The notes under the pieces: generated by a model
Database searches by the model: none
What the model was told of the DNA's origin: nothing
Seen by the model: only the letters and a program-made list of their open reading frames with translations
In this document: positions 1 to 28,934 of the stretch, piece by piece
How positions within the stretch are numbered: position 1 is the stretch's first letter
Layout of the letters: every line of letters begins with the position of its first letter
Source: Candidatus Poribacteria bacterium
GTDB lineage: Bacteria > Poribacteria > WGA-4E > WGA-3G
Assembly (NCBI GenBank): GCA_965215265.1
Contig: OZ244048.1
Coordinates: 1,664,001-1,728,000, forward strand
Length of the DNA: 64,000 nucleotides
Direction of reading: 5' to 3'
Program-made: the position numbers and the translations under genes

Positions 1-259
1 GGACATCCGACGGAACATTGTACGTATGCATATCCTCGGAAAAGCGGTATTGTCCTAATACCCCAGCATTGATAACCACATCATCACGGAGAGGTTGTGG
101 ATGGAAAAACATCGGCGGAATAATCGGTGCCCACCCGCCCAATTCCTCTGAAGAGTCCTTGTGTGCGTAGCTCAGGAGCAACGGTTGTAGACAGAATAGC
201 AGCAAAAGCACCCAAATGGACATCCGCTTGAAAAAGTGAATTCTAATATTTGCTCTCAA
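1..259 (-). CDS. Partial putative secreted protein running off the window start
   Basis: AGGAGG then TTG at 259; the frame reads MRANIRIHFFKRMSIWVLLLLFCLQPLLLSYA (signal-peptide-like) and stays open to the edge. Not in the ORF track, and no family recognised. Confidence 0.35.
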   Translation of the reverse strand, partial: MRANIRIHFFKRMSIWVLLLLFCLQPLLLSYAHKDSSEELGGWAPIIPPMFFHPQPLRDDVVINAGVLGQYRFSEDMHTYNVPSDV

Positions 260-292
260 CAGATAAGCCTCCTTTCTGAAAACCAAATCGAA

Positions 293-314
293 TCCGAGCT
301 GCACGCAGATCAGA
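293..314. repeat. Degenerate palindrome just downstream of the FGE-domain gene (DGR-type hairpin candidate)
   Basis: TCCGAGCTGCACGCAGATCAGA differs at 3 positions from the perfect palindrome at 26197-26220 and has a similar position after the stop codon. Confidence 0.7.
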
Positions 315-326
315 AGAGGTAAAGAT

Positions 327-2860
327 TTAAGGCGTTACAGCCCGCGCACACCGGAACCCGATGTAGGTGGTCGCGTCCGTAGGGGGCCTCATGAGGCGAT
401 CGGCGACACGCAGGTTTTGGGCAATGTGGGGCCAACCCCCGCCACGCAACACGCGAGTGGACTTAACACTTGTAAAATCATTTACAATCAGATCCAGATT
501 CGATATGGTGTTCACGTCACTCAGCGGATTCCGAGACGGCGAACTAAAATAGAAATCCGAATCATACGCATCAAGACACCACTCCCACACGTTCCCGGCC
601 ATATCATACAGCCCATACCCGTTCGCCGCATAACTCCCTACAGGACGGGTGTCCCCTACATTCTGACCGTAGTTCGCCCGCGCAGAGGAGATTGTATTCC
701 CCCACGGATACTTTAACCCTGATTTCCCACCCCGCGCTGCTTTCTCCCACTCCGCCTCCGTTGGAAGACGCTTACCTGCCCACGCAGAATATGCTATCGC
801 CGCATACCACGACACATACCTCACAGGATGGTCCCCCTTACCCACTGGATAGTTATTACCTTCCCAACGTCTTAGGTACTTACCATTGTGGAAGGCATCC
901 GGAATACGCCCCTTCTGCCACTCGGGATTCGCAAGCACGAAACGTTGATACTGCGCGTTCGTCACTTCATACTGGTCCATGTAGAACGCATCCACATACA
1001 CCGTATGCACAGGCTGCTCGTCAGCATCGGCATCGGCATCTTTGCTGCCCATCTGGAAGGCGCCTGCGGGGATGAGCACCATCCCTTCGGGGGCCGCCGG
1101 TGCGGTAGTGCGGGTGGCTGGCGGCGGGATTGGGGGCGTATTACCGGCCGTTCGCCGTCTCGGAAATGAAGGCGTTACAGCCCTCGCGCACCGGAACCCG
1201 GCGTCGTTGAACGCGTACGTTGGTGTATTCCTGAGGCGATCGGCGACACGCAGGTAGCGAGTATCATCGTCCCAACTCCCGCCACGCAACACGCGATAAT
1301 GCTTAACATGTGTAAATCCATCTACAATCTCATCCAGATTCGCGAGCATACTGCCAGACACACCACTCAGCGGATTACTAGACGGAGACTCTGAATAGAA
1401 AGCCGCATCATACGCATCAAGACACCACTCCCACACGTTGCCGGCCATGTCATACAGCCCATACCCGTTCGCAGCATAACTCCCCACAGCCGTTGTACCG
1501 CCTACATTACTAACGTAGTTCGCATGCGCAGAGGAGATTGTATTCCCCCACGGATACTTTAACCCTGATCGTCCACCGCGTGCCGCTTTCTCCCACTCCG
1601 CCTCCGTTGGAAGACGCTTACCTACCCACGCCGCATACGCCATCGCACCATACCACGATACATACGTCACAGGATGGTTCGCCTTACCCGAAGGATAGTT
1701 ATTACCTTCCCAGTGATCTAGGTAGGAACCATCGTGGAGATCGGCCGAAATACGCCCCTTTTGCCACTGCGGGTTCGCAAGCACAAACCGCTTGTATTCC
1801 AAATTCGTCACCTCGTGCATGTCCATGTAGAACGCGTCCACATGCACCGTCCGCACAAGCTGCTCGTCAGCATCGGCATCGGCATCTTTGCTGCCCATCT
1901 GGAAGTCGCCTGCGGGGATGAGCACCATCCCTTCGGGGGCCGACGGTGCGGTAGTGCGGGTGGCCGGCGGCGGGATTGGGCGCGTATTACCGGCCGTTCG
2001 CCGTTCCGGAAATGAAGGCGTTACAGCCCTCGCACACCGGAACCCGAAGTTGCTGAACGCGGACGTCGGGGGTGAATCCCCGCGGCGAAAAGCGGCACGC
2101 AGGAGCCGTGCAGGACCGTTCCAACTCCCGCCACGCAACACGCGAAGTGACCTAACATGTGTATAGTCATTTACAATCTCATCCAGATTCGATATGGTGT
2201 TCACGTCGCTCAGCGGATTACGAGCCGGCGAATTAAAATAGAAATCCGAATCATAAGCGTCCAGACACCACTCCCACACGTTCCCTGCCATGTCATATAG
2301 CCCATACCCGTTCGCAGCATAACTCCCCACAGCCGTTGTATAGTTTACATTCCTATCGTAGTTCGCATCGTTCGGCGTTATCGTGTCTCCCCGCGGGTAT
2401 TTCTTACCAACTAACCCACCGCGCGCCGCTTTTTCCCACTCCGCCTCCGTCGGTAGACGCTTACCTGTCCATGCCGCATACGCCATCGCACCATACCACG
2501 ACACATTTACCACCGGATGGTTCGCCTTACCTGCTGGATAGTTATTACCATTCCAATGTTTTAGGTAATTACCATTGTGGAGCGTGCGGGGGATGCGCGT
2601 CTTTTGCCATTGGGGGTTCGCCAGCACAAACCGCTTGTATTCCAGATTCGTCACCTCGTGCGTGTCCATGTAGAACGCGTCCACATGCACCGTGTGCACA
2701 GGCTGCTCGTTATTACCGGCATCGGCAGCCTCACTGCCCATCCGGAATGTGCCACCGGGGATGAGCACCATACCTTCGGGGGCCGCCGGTGCGGTAGTGC
2801 GGGTGGCCGGCGGCGGGATTGGGCGCGTATTACCGGCCGTTCGCCGTTTCGGAAATGAAT
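327..2860 (-). repeat. Three tandem ~845-bp intragenic domain duplications
   Basis: The near-identical linker SFP.RRTAGNT.PIPPPATRTTAP.APEGMVLIP and the FGE cores recur, with unit boundaries near 1170, 2016 and 2860. Confidence 0.9.
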
Positions 2861-3746
2861 ACGCGTAAGGCTTCTGGGTTGTCTGACCTATTTTATTCAG
2901 TTTCCGCTGGTTAGATGAAAGGAACGTTGTCTCATTGAAAAGTTTTTGTGTTTTCTGTTGCGTCAGTGCAAAGACCTCGCGCCACGACAGGAATCTATCA
3001 GAATCTCTATCTGCCTCCGCAGTGAAACTATCGAGCAGTGACACAGTGAAATACCCACCGATATCGTCATTTCCCCAGGCGTATTCACCAGCCGACGCAG
3101 CCGTGATGTCCAGAAAACCGCGATGTTCTAAAAACAGATTTTTGGTGTACCGCCGCTCTCTTGACTGAACTCTGGCGTAACGGCGTGCAATCGTTGGTGG
3201 TGCTTGAACCCGATTACTACACGTGTCCGTAATCAGCAGCTTTAACCGGCCTGCTTTGTCCTTCAACACGTTACGAATTCCATCCCGGGAGACAAAATCG
3301 TTCGTGACTTCCGGGTCAAAGTTGAGAATGTGGGTGCCAAAAGCATCCATACTTCCGTGTCCACTATAGTAGATGAGAACTGTATCATCATCGTTCGGAT
3401 GCAACTCTCGGAGCCATTGACCCACCTGTTTCGCTTTGATAATCCCCTGCTTTTCTTCCTGAATGCCGCGTGAATCGGTGTTGGACAGCGTGAACTCCTT
3501 GACCATTCCGTCGATTTCGGTTTCCGATTTCATCAGAGTCACGTGCACCTCACAGTCTTCGGACACCTGCCTCAGCAAGGTTTGCATCTTACTCTCATTT
3601 TTCTCGACGCTCGTCCGGATATCTGCATCGTTTCCCAGGATTACCAGCAGCGCGTGCACCTTTTGTGCATCGGCTGAGGGGGCGGCAACAAGAAAGGAAA
3701 CCAAGACGAAGAACCCTATAGCGTGGACAACTTGTTTTGCAATCAT
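327..3746 (-). CDS. Secreted caspase-like (peptidase C14) domain protein with three tandem FGE-sulfatase/C-type-lectin-fold domains; probable DGR target
   Basis: N-terminal signal peptide; YYSGHG and ITDTCS match the His/Cys caspase dyad; three ~280-aa repeats with F.MGS, RLPTEAEWEKAARGG, NGYGLYDMAGNVWEW and RVLRGGSW...GFRCAR. Confidence 0.9.
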   Translation of the reverse strand: MIAKQVVHAIGFFVLVSFLVAAPSADAQKVHALLVILGNDADIRTSVEKNESKMQTLLRQVSEDCEVHVTLMKSETEIDGMVKEFTLSNTDSRGIQEEKQGIIKAKQVGQWLRELHPNDDDTVLIYYSGHGSMDAFGTHILNFDPEVTNDFVSRDGIRNVLKDKAGRLKLLITDTCSNRVQAPPTIARRYARVQSRERRYTKNLFLEHRGFLDITAASAGEYAWGNDDIGGYFTVSLLDSFTAEADRDSDRFLSWREVFALTQQKTQKLFNETTFLSSNQRKLNKIGQTTQKPYAYSFPKRRTAGNTRPIPPPATRTTAPAAPEGMVLIPGGTFRMGSEAADAGNNEQPVHTVHVDAFYMDTHEVTNLEYKRFVLANPQWQKTRIPRTLHNGNYLKHWNGNNYPAGKANHPVVNVSWYGAMAYAAWTGKRLPTEAEWEKAARGGLVGKKYPRGDTITPNDANYDRNVNYTTAVGSYAANGYGLYDMAGNVWEWCLDAYDSDFYFNSPARNPLSDVNTISNLDEIVNDYTHVRSLRVLRGGSWNGPARLLRAAFRRGDSPPTSAFSNFGFRCARAVTPSFPERRTAGNTRPIPPPATRTTAPSAPEGMVLIPAGDFQMGSKDADADADEQLVRTVHVDAFYMDMHEVTNLEYKRFVLANPQWQKGRISADLHDGSYLDHWEGNNYPSGKANHPVTYVSWYGAMAYAAWVGKRLPTEAEWEKAARGGRSGLKYPWGNTISSAHANYVSNVGGTTAVGSYAANGYGLYDMAGNVWEWCLDAYDAAFYSESPSSNPLSGVSGSMLANLDEIVDGFTHVKHYRVLRGGSWDDDTRYLRVADRLRNTPTYAFNDAGFRCARAVTPSFPRRRTAGNTPPIPPPATRTTAPAAPEGMVLIPAGAFQMGSKDADADADEQPVHTVYVDAFYMDQYEVTNAQYQRFVLANPEWQKGRIPDAFHNGKYLRRWEGNNYPVGKGDHPVRYVSWYAAIAYSAWAGKRLPTEAEWEKAARGGKSGLKYPWGNTISSARANYGQNVGDTRPVGSYAANGYGLYDMAGNVWEWCLDAYDSDFYFSSPSRNPLSDVNTISNLDLIVNDFTSVKSTRVLRGGGWPHIAQNLRVADRLMRPPTDATTYIGFRCARAVTP

Positions 3747-26196: not shown

Positions 26197-26220
26197 GTCC
26201 GAGCTGCATGCAGCTCGGAC
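26197..26220. repeat. Perfect 24-bp palindrome downstream of the variable region (DGR-type hairpin/cruciform candidate)
   Basis: GTCCGAGCTGCATGCAGCTCGGAC, 19 bp after the TAA of the FGE gene. Confidence 0.75.
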
Positions 26221-26239: not shown

Positions 26240-28213
26240 TTAAGGAGTAACAGCCCTCGCGCACCGGAACCCGACACCGCCGTACGTGAACGTCGGGGTA
26301 AGCCTGCTGCGACCGGCGACACGCAGTTTTCGTGTAGGACTGTTCCAACTACCGCCACGCAACACGCGAGAGGAAGAGATCATAGCGGTCATATAGCGAT
26401 TTACAATCTCAGCCACATTCACGAGCGTACTGCCAGACACACCACTCAGCGGATTCCGAGACGGAGACTCAGAATAGAAATCCGCATCATACGCATCAAG
26501 ACACCACTCGTAAACGTTGCCTGCCATATCATACAGCCCATACCCGTTCGCAGCATAACTCCCCACAGCCGTTGTATTGCCTACATTCCTACCGTGGTTG
26601 GCGTTATTAGGCGTTATCGTGTCCCCCCACGGGTATTTCTTACCAACTAACCCACCGCGTGCCGCTTTCTCCCACTCCGCCTCCGTTGGCAGACGCTTAC
26701 CTGCCCACACGGAATATGCCATCGCACCATACCACGACACATACCTCACGGGATGGTTCGCCTTACCCACTGGATAGTTATTACCTTCCCAAAGCATTAG
26801 GTACTTACCATTGTGGAAGGCATCCGGAATCTGCGTCTTCTGCCACTCGGGGTTCGCCAGCAGAAAACTTTTATACTCGGCGTTCGTCACTTCGTGCATA
26901 TCCATATAGAACGCGTCCACATACACCGTCCGCACAGGCTGCTCGTCACCATCGGCCTCGGCATCGTTGCTGCCCATCTGGAACTCGCCCGCGGGGATGA
27001 GTGCCATCCCTGCAGGCACCGATGTTGCACTCACACAACGAAACCCGGTGAAGCTTGCCGTGAACGTCGGCTCCCTCTTGAACCTATCGGCGACGCGCTG
27101 GTAACGCACATCAGCACGCCAATTACCACCCCGCAACACCCGCATTGACTTCACATTTACGCCAATGTAGTCCGATACAATCTCAGCCACATTCGCGAGC
27201 ATACTACCAGACACACCACACAGCGGATTCCGAGACGGAGACTTTTTATAAAATTTCTTATCCCACGCATCAAGACACCACTCGTGAACGTTCCCGGCCA
27301 TGTCGAACAGCCCATACCCGTTCGCAGCATAACTCCCCACAGAAGTCGTATCGTCTACATTCCTATCGTAGTTCGCATCGTTCGGCGTTATCATGTCTCC
27401 CCACGGATACTTCAGACCTGCCTCCCCACCGCGTGCCGCTTTCTCCCATTCCGCCTCCGTTGGCAGACGCTTCCCTGCCCACGCAGCATAAGCCATCGCC
27501 GCATGCCACGACACATACCTCACAGGATGGTCCCCCTTACCCACTGGATAGTTATTACCGTCCCAACGGTTTAGGTAAGAACCAAAGTGGAAGGCATCCG
27601 AAATACGCCCCTTCTGCCACTCGGGATTCGCCAGCACAAAAGTTTGATACTCAGCGTTCGTCACTTCGTGCGTATCCATATAGAACGCGTCCACATGCAC
27701 CGTATGCACAGGCTGCTCGTTATCCCGCGCATCAGCATCGTTGCTGCCCATCTGGAAGGTGCCGCCGGGGATGAGCACCATCCCTGCAGGCGCAGACGCG
27801 GGAGCCGCAGGCGCAGACGCGGGAGCCGCAGGCGCAGACGCTGCACCGTTAAACCCCGCCGCTACTAACACCACGTCTCCTATATCCACTACACTATTCC
27901 CGTTCATATCTGCCGAACTGTTACCGCGGGTTCCCAGGCGCGCCGCTACCAATGCCAAATCCACTATATCCACACGGCCATCACCATTCACATCCGCATC
28001 ACCTTTGACAGCCGAAAGCATGCCGACATCCGCAGGCAGGCTTACCCCTTGCGCACACACAGCGCCAACACTCCCTAAACTCAAAACTATACACGCCAAT
28101 ATTGCTAACATCACTGACACGCTGTTATTAGTCATTACAGTCCTCCAAACCTTTGACACTTTTTTAGCGGACATTACAGTCCTCCAAACCTTTGACACTT
28201 TTTTATTACACAT
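26240..28213 (-). CDS. Secreted dockerin-like/EF-hand + two FGE-sulfatase/C-type-lectin domains; probable DGR target
   Basis: Signal peptide; DVNGDGRVDIVDL and DMNGNSVVDIGD repeats; PAAPASA linker; two FGE domains, the last ending GFRCARAVTP*. Confidence 0.88.
   Translation of the reverse strand: MCNKKVSKVWRTVMSAKKVSKVWRTVMTNNSVSVMLAILACIVLSLGSVGAVCAQGVSLPADVGMLSAVKGDADVNGDGRVDIVDLALVAARLGTRGNSSADMNGNSVVDIGDVVLVAAGFNGAASAPAAPASAPAAPASAPAGMVLIPGGTFQMGSNDADARDNEQPVHTVHVDAFYMDTHEVTNAEYQTFVLANPEWQKGRISDAFHFGSYLNRWDGNNYPVGKGDHPVRYVSWHAAMAYAAWAGKRLPTEAEWEKAARGGEAGLKYPWGDMITPNDANYDRNVDDTTSVGSYAANGYGLFDMAGNVHEWCLDAWDKKFYKKSPSRNPLCGVSGSMLANVAEIVSDYIGVNVKSMRVLRGGNWRADVRYQRVADRFKREPTFTASFTGFRCVSATSVPAGMALIPAGEFQMGSNDAEADGDEQPVRTVYVDAFYMDMHEVTNAEYKSFLLANPEWQKTQIPDAFHNGKYLMLWEGNNYPVGKANHPVRYVSWYGAMAYSVWAGKRLPTEAEWEKAARGGLVGKKYPWGDTITPNNANHGRNVGNTTAVGSYAANGYGLYDMAGNVYEWCLDAYDADFYSESPSRNPLSGVSGSTLVNVAEIVNRYMTAMISSSRVLRGGSWNSPTRKLRVAGRSRLTPTFTYGGVGFRCARAVTP
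27786..27841 (-). repeat. 21-bp tandem repeat encoding an (ASAPAAP)n linker
   Basis: GCAGGCGCAGACGCGGGAGCC repeated about 2.7 times. Confidence 0.85.
28133..28204 (-). repeat. 39-bp-period tandem duplication containing RBS + ATG
   Basis: AAAAAAGTGTCAAAGGTTTGGAGGACTGTAATG twice on the minus strand. Confidence 0.85.
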
Positions 28214-28325
28214 TATATACCTCCAAATGCCGCGAAACACTCGCGGCTAAAAATACGAGGGGTTGGAGGCGAGACCGCCGCGTCAAACGCAGACGGCACA
28301 CACACCCTTACACCTCTCTCACGCT

Positions 28326-28934
28326 TTACTTCCTTATCAACATCTTCTGCGTGGCGGAGAAGTCGCCGGCACGCAGCGTATAGAAATAGATACCACTTGC
28401 AACACGCTCACCAGAGGCGTTGCGCCCGTCCCAATACGCGGCACGCGCCTTGCTCTCGTAACGGCCCGCCGCTTGATGTCCCAACGCTAACGTCCTAACC
28501 AAACGCCCGTCCAACGCATAGATGGACACCTCCACATCCGCTGGCACTGCCAGTTGATAAGGTATCCACGTCTCTGGGTTGAACGGATTCGGATAGTTCG
28601 CTAACAGCCGCGGCCGCTCCACAGGCTGCATCTCCCACAGCACCTGTTCAAGGTTCGCTATCCCCTTTGCAAAAACCGCGGAGCCGTCATTGTTGGCACG
28701 TAACAGCGACAACCACTCTGCAACCGTTTCAGGAGAAACCGAGTCAGCGGAGACGGCAGGCAAGCTACGTGCTATGCTTGTGAGCCCGTCAACCGGAGGC
28801 GCAACGCGCTGCGTCTCTGAGTGAACCGGCATCAAGCCGTATTGCGCTTTTACCAGTCCGTAGCAGGCAAACACTAACACCAGCCCGCCCAAGAAAATCA
28901 CGATGCCTTTTTTCGGGTTCTTCCAATCTTTCAT
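28326..28934 (-). CDS. Secreted protein with a C-terminal FlgD-Ig/T9SS-A-like domain
   Basis: N-terminal hydrophobic segment; LLANYPNPFNPETWIPYQL...YWDGRNASGERVASGIYFYTL. Confidence 0.8.
   Translation of the reverse strand: MKDWKNPKKGIVIFLGGLVLVFACYGLVKAQYGLMPVHSETQRVAPPVDGLTSIARSLPAVSADSVSPETVAEWLSLLRANNDGSAVFAKGIANLEQVLWEMQPVERPRLLANYPNPFNPETWIPYQLAVPADVEVSIYALDGRLVRTLALGHQAAGRYESKARAAYWDGRNASGERVASGIYFYTLRAGDFSATQKMLIRK

Follow-up and report, generated by a model that had tools for sequence, protein, structure and literature searches.

Lectin-fold tips of a caspase-like protein from a Poribacteria genome as probable records of past mutagenic retrohoming

Does a single polypeptide carry three targets of a diversity-generating retroelement (DGR), and are these targets still being rewritten? 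The question is raised by a gene near the beginning of a 64,000-nucleotide stretch of the genome of a Candidatus Poribacteria bacterium (contig OZ244048.1, positions 1,664,001 to 1,728,000; this whole stretch is referred to as the window). Its product, P0001, has a caspase domain followed by three tandem units, each consisting of a linker and an FGE-sulfatase domain, i.e. a domain of formylglycine-generating enzyme (FGE) type. According to an earlier note, made from the sequence alone, the ends of these three lectin-fold domains bear the signature of adenine mutagenesis and would together act as a combinatorial receptor with three differently diversified variable regions (VRs). Our analysis supports the proposed origin of the domain ends and not their proposed activity. 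The best explanation of the whole, which we hold with moderate confidence, is that the tips are records of past retrohoming and most likely are no longer rewritten.

Components of a DGR were sought in the complete genome, a single contig (C1) of 4,833,177 bases on which the window begins at C1:1664001. Only one match to the RVT_1 model was obtained (C1:1420096-1420737, 85 bits). It belongs to a complete cassette 243 kb away from the window, in which a target gene with its VR is accompanied by Avd, a reverse transcriptase (RT) and an adenine-rich template repeat (TR); coordinates are listed in Table 1. Translation of the RT contains IGNLTSQ and YVDD, which we take to be hallmarks of DGR reverse transcriptases, and group II and other NCBIfam RT models all scored under their cut-offs. 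No second full RT or Avd was detected in the genome by tblastn. The cognate VR differs from TR at 16 of 35 adenine sites and at none of the 77 other sites. The criteria of a DGR, namely an RT gene, an adjoining Avd and a TR/VR pair differing only at template adenines, are thus all seen in the cassette. Four copies of the template, including the cognate VR, have no mismatch at the 77 non-adenine sites and differ from one another at adenine sites (e.g. at 11 of 35 between copies 4150259 and 4795105). Judged from these sequences, the cassette looks intact and recently active.

The earlier note had recommended a genome search for the template beside RT and avd genes and had also deduced the template from the domain ends. 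The real TR, compared by eye, agrees with this reconstruction at 79 of 84 bases, and three of the five differences are backbone differences of the kind discussed below. The DGR has orthologs in G004 (83% RT identity) and G024 (79%), which represent two other genera of the family. The RT query was matched in 10 of 41 genomes, source genome (G000) included; the same-genus genome G001 gave no match to it.

Each of the three P0001 units ends in a copy, approximately 111 nt long, of this single template. VR1 differs from TR at 24 of 35 adenine sites and at 4 of 77 other sites, with a 3-nt insertion in addition (Fisher p 3e-12). Corresponding values are 16/35 and 7/77 for VR2 (p 2e-5), and 21/35 and 10/77 for VR3 (p 7e-7). 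When the three VRs are compared with each other in pairs, 21-28 of the 35 template-adenine positions differ versus 3-6 of the 77 others (Fisher p 1e-10 to 3e-14); 600-nt bodies of the same domains are 80.5-82.9% identical. Since the mismatches of VR1-VR3 are concentrated at adenines, the DGR origin of the domain ends is well supported, and together with the Avd-RT-TR cassette this bears out the proposal that a DGR wrote them. The more specific expectation that mismatches fall at TR adenines holds as a strong enrichment and fails as a restriction, as the other sites are also affected in all three VRs. Sequence details on which the proposal was based proved accurate. The flanks CGC GTG TTG CGT GGC GGG and GGG TTC CGG TGY GCG are shared by all three domain ends, the six codons quoted for each domain read exactly as given, and 23 of 25 such codons in the five domain ends of the window are NNC (exceptions are GGT in 26258-26368 and GCA in 27032-27142).

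We wondered how many other copies of the template exist. Fuzzy anchor search followed by gapped alignment to TR (35 adenine and 77 other sites) yielded 41 further matches in the genome: 31 template-like copies, seven strongly diverged copies and three false positives. Template-like copies have 0-12 mismatches at the 77 non-adenine sites and 15-27 at the 35 adenine sites; in the strongly diverged ones, 19-24 of the 77 non-adenine sites are changed. Besides the four copies devoid of non-adenine mismatches, five more have one to three. The matches at 955806, 2552996 and 4277134 were discarded, having 28/77 non-adenine mismatches and 16 gap columns each. The first lies in a DUF1156 protein without FGE domain (955624-958404), and the other two are exact to it over the matched stretch. 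Variation of codon positions 1 and 2 with preservation of position 3, noticed earlier in the window, is also seen across the 31 template-like copies: of 365 codons that correspond to AAC or AAT in the template, 253 are changed at position 1, 211 at position 2 and only 11 at position 3. In other members of the family, the same tip is carried by dockerin, cohesin plus dockerin, C39-like peptidase or PA14 proteins, or it stands alone.

Do the window copies reflect the present template? Their non-adenine mismatches are found mostly at six common positions (CGT, GGG and AGT in the 5' flank; CGT GTC GCC in the middle), and this backbone recurs as a haplotype in a dozen copies. VR1 and VR2 display no private non-adenine mutation beyond the shared backbone positions; of the ten non-adenine changes of VR3, four are outside the shared set, i.e. 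common to few or no other copies. GTC GCC is also what the TRs of G004 and G024 have in the middle, which suggests that the window backbone is an older or alternative template state. No adenine-rich template with this backbone was found in the 4.83-Mb genome: apart from TR itself, all ungapped matches are changed at at least 19 of 38 adenine positions, and all gapped alignments at at least 15 of 35. Complete homing from the present TR would erase the older backbone, and for this reason the window VRs are not read as live. None of VR1, VR2 and VR3 conforms to the rule that Wu et al. (2018, PMC5758913), in the passage concerned, apply to non-adjacent targets (A-to-N differences only, with minor exceptions).

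All three VRs retain a stretch resembling the initiation of mutagenic homing (IMH) sequence. After a common GC-rich stretch they read AGGGCTGT or CGGGCTGT, where TR instead continues AAGACCCT; one base of this stretch is changed in VR3. At terminal copies, a conserved stem-loop is located about 40 nt after the common GC-rich IMH-like stretch. A perfect stem of 8-10 bp occurs at 13 copies, in two variants differing by a compensatory pair, and the hairpin is present at all four copies with zero non-adenine mismatches. TR lacks the hairpin and has a different, IMH*-like continuation. No such stem was found downstream of VR1 and VR2, which are followed by linker coding sequence instead, and the one after VR3 is degenerate. 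Several terminal copies in G004 are likewise followed by a similar hairpin. Conservation of the hairpin, the one compensatory variant and the correlation with backbone state suggest that it may have a role in target recognition. Covariation (T-A versus G-C) was rejected as firm proof, since the four T-A copies share flanks and possibly stem from one event.

Further, six dockerin genes, which have two FGE units or three and all belong to one gene family of the same genome, were compared. Because no paralog body is closer than 87% to the P0001 units, the contrast between terminal and internal copies comes from these dockerin genes. For the internal domain 2, in which the IMH-like stretch is intact and the hairpin absent, all three near-identical pairs (bodies 97.3-97.7% identical) have 0/35 adenine-site differences; a fourth domain-2 copy, with 82% body identity, has 22/35. 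The likewise internal domain 1 shows 0-7/35 differences in seven pairs with bodies more than 90% identical. In the terminal domain 3, four pairs with bodies 90-93% identical differ at 23-26 of the 35 sites. So rewriting since the duplication of dockerin genes seems, by this comparison, to have struck terminal copies and spared internal ones. A linear template history, in which VRs would be dated by their backbone, had to be abandoned: near-modern internal copies predate the duplication and old-backbone terminal copies diversified after it. This mixed order requires two coexisting templates or recombination.

Population data were available as contigs from four samples of one study (X3-X6, the best four of six runs holding part of the stretch). 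Contigs covering VR3 (1-518 or 1-507) and VR1 (1976-2201) show no differences in all four runs, and those covering VR2 (1089-1348) none in X3 and X4; among the differences listed for the X3-X6 contigs, none lies inside a VR. In three runs the depths of the VR contigs are near that of the single-copy flank (in X3, for instance, 23.7, 27.1 and 29.1 at a flank of 29.9); X4 is the exception, its VR3 contig reaching 1000.8 compared with 592.8 for the flank. Identity of the contigs speaks against diversification on a large scale or between samples but leaves room for rare events.

The explanation that we prefer can be outlined as follows. An exported caspase-like protein would carry three binding modules of lectin fold (FGE type), each ending in a tip that is a VR once written by mutagenic retrohoming from the DGR of this lineage. 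The surviving single cassette writes, or wrote, a family presumably comprising the 31 template-like copies dispersed over the 4.8-Mb genome. In the window the copies keep a backbone older than the present TR, pointing to rewriting that has most likely ceased; VR1 and VR2 would have lost the hairpin typical of terminal targets, and VR3 shows private point mutations and hairpin damage. The three-unit protein may thus bind multivalently through three inherited specificities that differ from each other and no longer change, and it was probably assembled by duplication or recombination of linker-domain-VR units from the paralog pool. P0001 could then be viewed as a protease that is exported and attached to three lectin-like binders, each with its own fixed specificity. 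Writing by retrohoming, inactivity of the copies, the route of unit assembly and binding and cleavage of an extracellular ligand are all inferred from sequence.

Several observations weigh against frozen tips. Absence of private non-adenine mutations from VR1 and VR2 may indicate fairly recent writing, the core of VR1 is near-modern (1/39 non-adenine mismatches with TR), and the IMH-like stretch is intact at both. Internal VRs that apparently diversify are known from the literature: Wu et al. (2018) mention a target that combines three VRs, two of which are internal, with three tandem FGE domains (PMC5758913), and Doré et al. (2024) report variation measured in all three VRs of one target (PMC10907252). 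The inverted repeat of the Bordetella phage DGR is described in the former source as aiding efficiency without being essential. Recombination instead of rewriting could lie behind the terminal-domain differences, which come from one gene family. Finally, contigs drop rare variants, and the four runs may include the source sample. For these reasons our confidence in the frozen state of the tips is no more than moderate.

Among the alternatives, that only C-terminal copies (VR3 and 26258-26368) are still occasional targets, with the internal ones frozen, is rather unlikely, though the most probable of them. Terminal copies diversify after duplication, the terminal copy of the second gene in the window keeps a perfect 10-bp hairpin, and both hairpin and IMH-like stretch of VR3 are still recognisable. 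However, non-adenine mismatches are more numerous in VR3 than in VR1 or VR2 (ten, four of them outside the shared set), an IMH base of VR3 is changed and its stem contains two mismatches. The older backbone is kept in both terminal copies, and contigs of VR3 do not differ between the four runs.

That all three VRs are live, trans-acting targets of the present DGR and form a combinatorial trivalent receptor, as the earlier note had proposed, we consider improbable. The adenine-specific pattern in each VR, the retained IMH-like stretches, a cassette whose zero-mismatch copies differ at adenine sites and published triple-VR targets all fit this proposal. But complete homing resets non-adenine positions, and 4-10 of 77 differ here; internal copies have no hairpin and are frozen in paralogs, and contigs of four runs show no differences. 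On these grounds the live receptor is not supported. What the note had named as evidence against itself was found in part: mismatches outside adenines do exist and the contigs do not vary, but TR and RT are there.

A related proposal is that one cassette acts in trans on some two to three dozen VRs, internal ones included, the caspase tips being slow but live. We find this doubtful. If true, this trans network over 4.8 Mb would far exceed in size any single-template target network described so far, and shared backbone states would record which version of the template wrote last, giving a datable, layered history of retrohoming.

A second template, residing on a replicon or strain variant absent from the assembly or recently lost, would account for the older-backbone copies. 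Older-backbone terminal copies differ at 26 of 35 adenine sites between paralogs with 93% identical bodies, from which it follows that a template with the older backbone acted after the duplication. An RT-like fragment of 23-25 amino acids, 64-70% identical to RT just before YVDD, is present at C1:3363435-3363509. However, the fragment is tiny and has no template-like copy nearby, the 4.83-Mb single-contig genome harbours no second adenine-rich template, and RVT_1 and Avd are each matched only once; we regard this explanation as very unlikely. That paralogs diverged in the ordinary way, with positive selection acting on a binding loop and without any retroelement, is scarcely credible: such loops often do diverge fastest in paralogs, but the sites that vary here correspond to adenines in a template beside Avd and RT, third codon positions are nearly untouched, and non-diversified type C ends in the same family display ordinary drift.

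Table 1. Features of the P0001 locus, the second target-family gene and the DGR cassette (plain numbers are window positions; C1, genome contig)
Feature	Position	Strand	Remarks
P0001 gene	327..3746	-	1139-aa protein; ORF list and translation
Peptidase_C14 caspase-like domain	2946..3419	-	aa 110-267; PF00656, 38.7 bits (cut-off 21.4)
FGE-sulfatase unit 1	2028..2777	-	aa 324-573; best Pfam stretch
FGE-sulfatase unit 2	~1182-1934	-	limits estimated from repeat period
FGE-sulfatase unit 3	~336-1088	-	limits estimated from repeat period
VR1	2031..2144	-	internal template-like copy with one extra codon; linker coding sequence after it
VR2	1185..1295	-	internal template-like copy; older "type B" backbone
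VR3	345..455	-	C-terminal template-like copy
Degenerate hairpin after VR3	293..314	-	10-nt arms, 2 mismatches; hybrid of the two variants
Three genes downstream of P0001 gene	L024 4666-6495, 6564-8078, 8075-9304		last extends to window 2..304 (-)
Dockerin + two FGE-sulfatase units gene	26240..28240	-	Pfam
Terminal template-like copy of dockerin gene	26258..26368	-	type B backbone; 19/35 adenine, 8/77 other sites differ from TR
Internal "type C" domain end of dockerin gene	27032..27142	-	24/35 adenine, 19/77 other sites differ from TR
Perfect hairpin of dockerin gene	26197..26220	-	10-bp stem, 4-nt loop; downstream of terminal copy 26258..26368
DGR cassette	C1:1,418,066-1,421,145		VR gene, Avd, RT, TR; 243 kb upstream of window
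Cassette target gene			376-aa FGE-sulfatase protein ending in VR
Cognate VR	C1:1419065-1419178		one codon more than TR, extra codon in AAC run
Avd			118 aa; NF033474 DivGenRetAVD 120.2 bits (cut-off 80); PF22296 bAvd 83 bits
RT			354 aa; intact ORF adjoining Avd
TR	C1:1421035-1421145		adenine-rich; ~90 nt beyond RT

The architecture of P0001 was examined domain by domain. By inspection of its residues, the N-terminus looks like a Sec signal peptide. SGHG and DTCS motifs, which we presume by inspection to be the putative His/Cys catalytic dyad, are seen by eye in the caspase-like domain; the NF047832 caspase subfamily model gives E 1.7e-7, under the cut-off of the model. PF03781 (FGE-sulfatase) scores 640 bits together over three stretches. 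The repeat unit is composed of a proline/threonine-rich linker, FGE domain, variable stretch and the sequence GFRCARAVTP, occurs three times after the caspase part and has its linker ahead of the first unit as well. Unit 3 matches the solved FGE structure 6s07 at E 7e-39, with an alignment spanning the domain, and the DGR variable protein TvpA (PDB 2y3c) at E 2.4e-14. Pfam and the TvpA match place the VRs at C-terminal ends of FGE-sulfatase/C-type lectin (CLec) domains. Unit 3 and FGE (SUMF1; PDB 6s07) belong to the same fold family, but the cysteine pair in the C-terminal loop of 6s07, presumably the catalytic pair of FGE, lies opposite the first variable cluster in the unit 3 alignment and has no counterpart in unit 3. 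The lectin-fold unit of P0001 is accordingly predicted to be a binding module and not an FGE enzyme.

The closest homolog in the protein database, P0004, is 81% identical to P0001 overall when compared as protein. Its front part (first ~330 residues) is near-identical, but it possesses only two FGE units and these are far more divergent, and therefore the units turn over by recombination. Recombination with a paralog pool evidently adds, removes or swaps units at a higher rate than that of divergence in the caspase part. In 25 relatives, no ortholog of this caspase part exceeded 49% identity, and the metagenome_contigs and genome_contigs sets yielded none at all.

Downstream of the P0001 gene, on the same strand, are a gene for a 409-aa protein without Pfam match and two caspase-DUF4384 genes. 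With these two, the P0001 gene brings the caspase-domain genes clustered here to three. Genes of STAND or MoxR conflict systems were not detected among the scanned neighbours.

The second target-family gene in the window encodes dockerin and two FGE-sulfatase units. Its terminal copy is followed by the perfect 10-bp stem, yet has the older backbone. The internal type C end is nearly the same across the six paralogs and has therefore not been diversified since they split. Adjoining this gene is one for a small protein with matches to FlgD Ig-like and type IX secretion C-terminal sorting domains (28326-28934, minus strand; Pfam).

Other members of the family show features of their own. Seven single-domain FGE genes stand in tandem in the source genome (C1:997807-1006764), each with its own template-like end having 1 to 12 of 77 non-adenine mismatches. 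Five of the seven are then followed by the conserved hairpin or a copy of it with two mismatches, the other two by a different sequence. This array is a possible source pool for the multi-unit fusions. A single 3-nt insertion or deletion is found in ten copies, among them the cognate VR, 1795834, 2357213, 2359547, 3732547 and VR1, some of these within or beside the AAC run. Copies 4150259 and 4795105 contain frame-breaking indels despite having no non-adenine mismatches.

A YhgA-like (Transposase_31) gene is present genome-wide in 14 near-full copies with 88-96% protein identity (e.g. L001 2871-3641; C1:1264791-1265864, 3731076-3732137, 4143879-4144976 and 4795625-4796746). Such a gene or its remnant lies at most 3 kb downstream of six of the 24 terminal template-like copies, and those six have 0-4 non-adenine mismatches. 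At the cassette, Avd-RT-TR is located between a ~200-nt post-VR element and a YhgA-like gene, positioned as though inserted into a repeated unit of target, flank and YhgA-like gene.

The RT-like fragment mentioned above (L034 ~1935-2009) lies inside a 52-aa open reading frame and may be a remnant of a second DGR-type element. In G002, a genome without match to the RT query, about eight caspase-domain genes form a tandem cluster (C1:1243032-1261008), and template-like FGE ends occur among them at 1244304, 1252979 and 1260894. These may be relic VRs that persist without a retroelement.

How does this system relate to known ones? In the passages cited here, Wu et al. (2018, PMC5758913) describe remote targets at more than 100 kb, differences other than A-to-N and 3-nt indels opposite AAC runs. 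The DGR described here resembles their FGE-sulfatase/CLec1 class (category b; prototype TvpA of Treponema denticola) in that VRs end an FGE-type lectin fold, and further in its AAC-rich template, IMH-like stretch, downstream GC-rich inverted repeat, Avd, RT and remote targets. Unlike the targets in those passages, the window VRs lie 243 kb from the cassette, have 4-10 non-adenine mismatches and are joined to a caspase front end. The survey maxima given there are seven non-adjacent and eight tandem targets; here 31 template-like copies belong to a single TR, and nine of these differ from it at 0-3 non-adenine sites.

Targets of DGR 4/5 in Thiohalocapsa PB-PSB1 consist, in the part of Doré et al. 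(2024, PMC10907252) drawn on here, of vWA followed by three tandem VR-bearing CLec domains. Variability is more frequent in the third VR than in the first two, and caspase-like CHAT domains occur in other targets. P0001 is similar in its three tandem VR-bearing lectin domains with a TR located elsewhere and acting in trans, and in both organisms duplication, domain shuffling and transposons shape the target repertoire. The predicted exported caspase next to two caspase-DUF4384 genes is a difference from Thiohalocapsa. As in BPP-1 and Legionella, where IMH is combined with a hairpin or cruciform, terminal targets here have a stem-loop at constant spacing downstream of the IMH-like stretch; neither the spacing nor the sequences agree with those given for BPP-1 (PMC5758913), and the role of the hairpin here is a suggestion. 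Triple-VR and triple-FGE targets, trans action and remote targets are thus already published in the cited parts of both papers. What stands out in the present genome is the number of template-like copies (31) for one template.

A DGR is hereby documented in a Poribacteria-type genome, and its actual template had been recovered almost base for base by reading the sequence alone. For annotators the locus is a caution, since the signature of adenine mutagenesis attests past activity and does not prove present activity. The dockerin genes provide a natural experiment on target recognition, in which one and the same gene contains IMH-bearing copies without hairpin, which remained unchanged, and terminal copies with hairpin, which were rewritten. 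For the organism itself, the joining of one lectin tip to caspase, dockerin, cohesin, C39-peptidase and PA14 suggests extracellular recognition, and a plausible role of the repertoire of lectin tips would be at the interface with a host or with other microbes.

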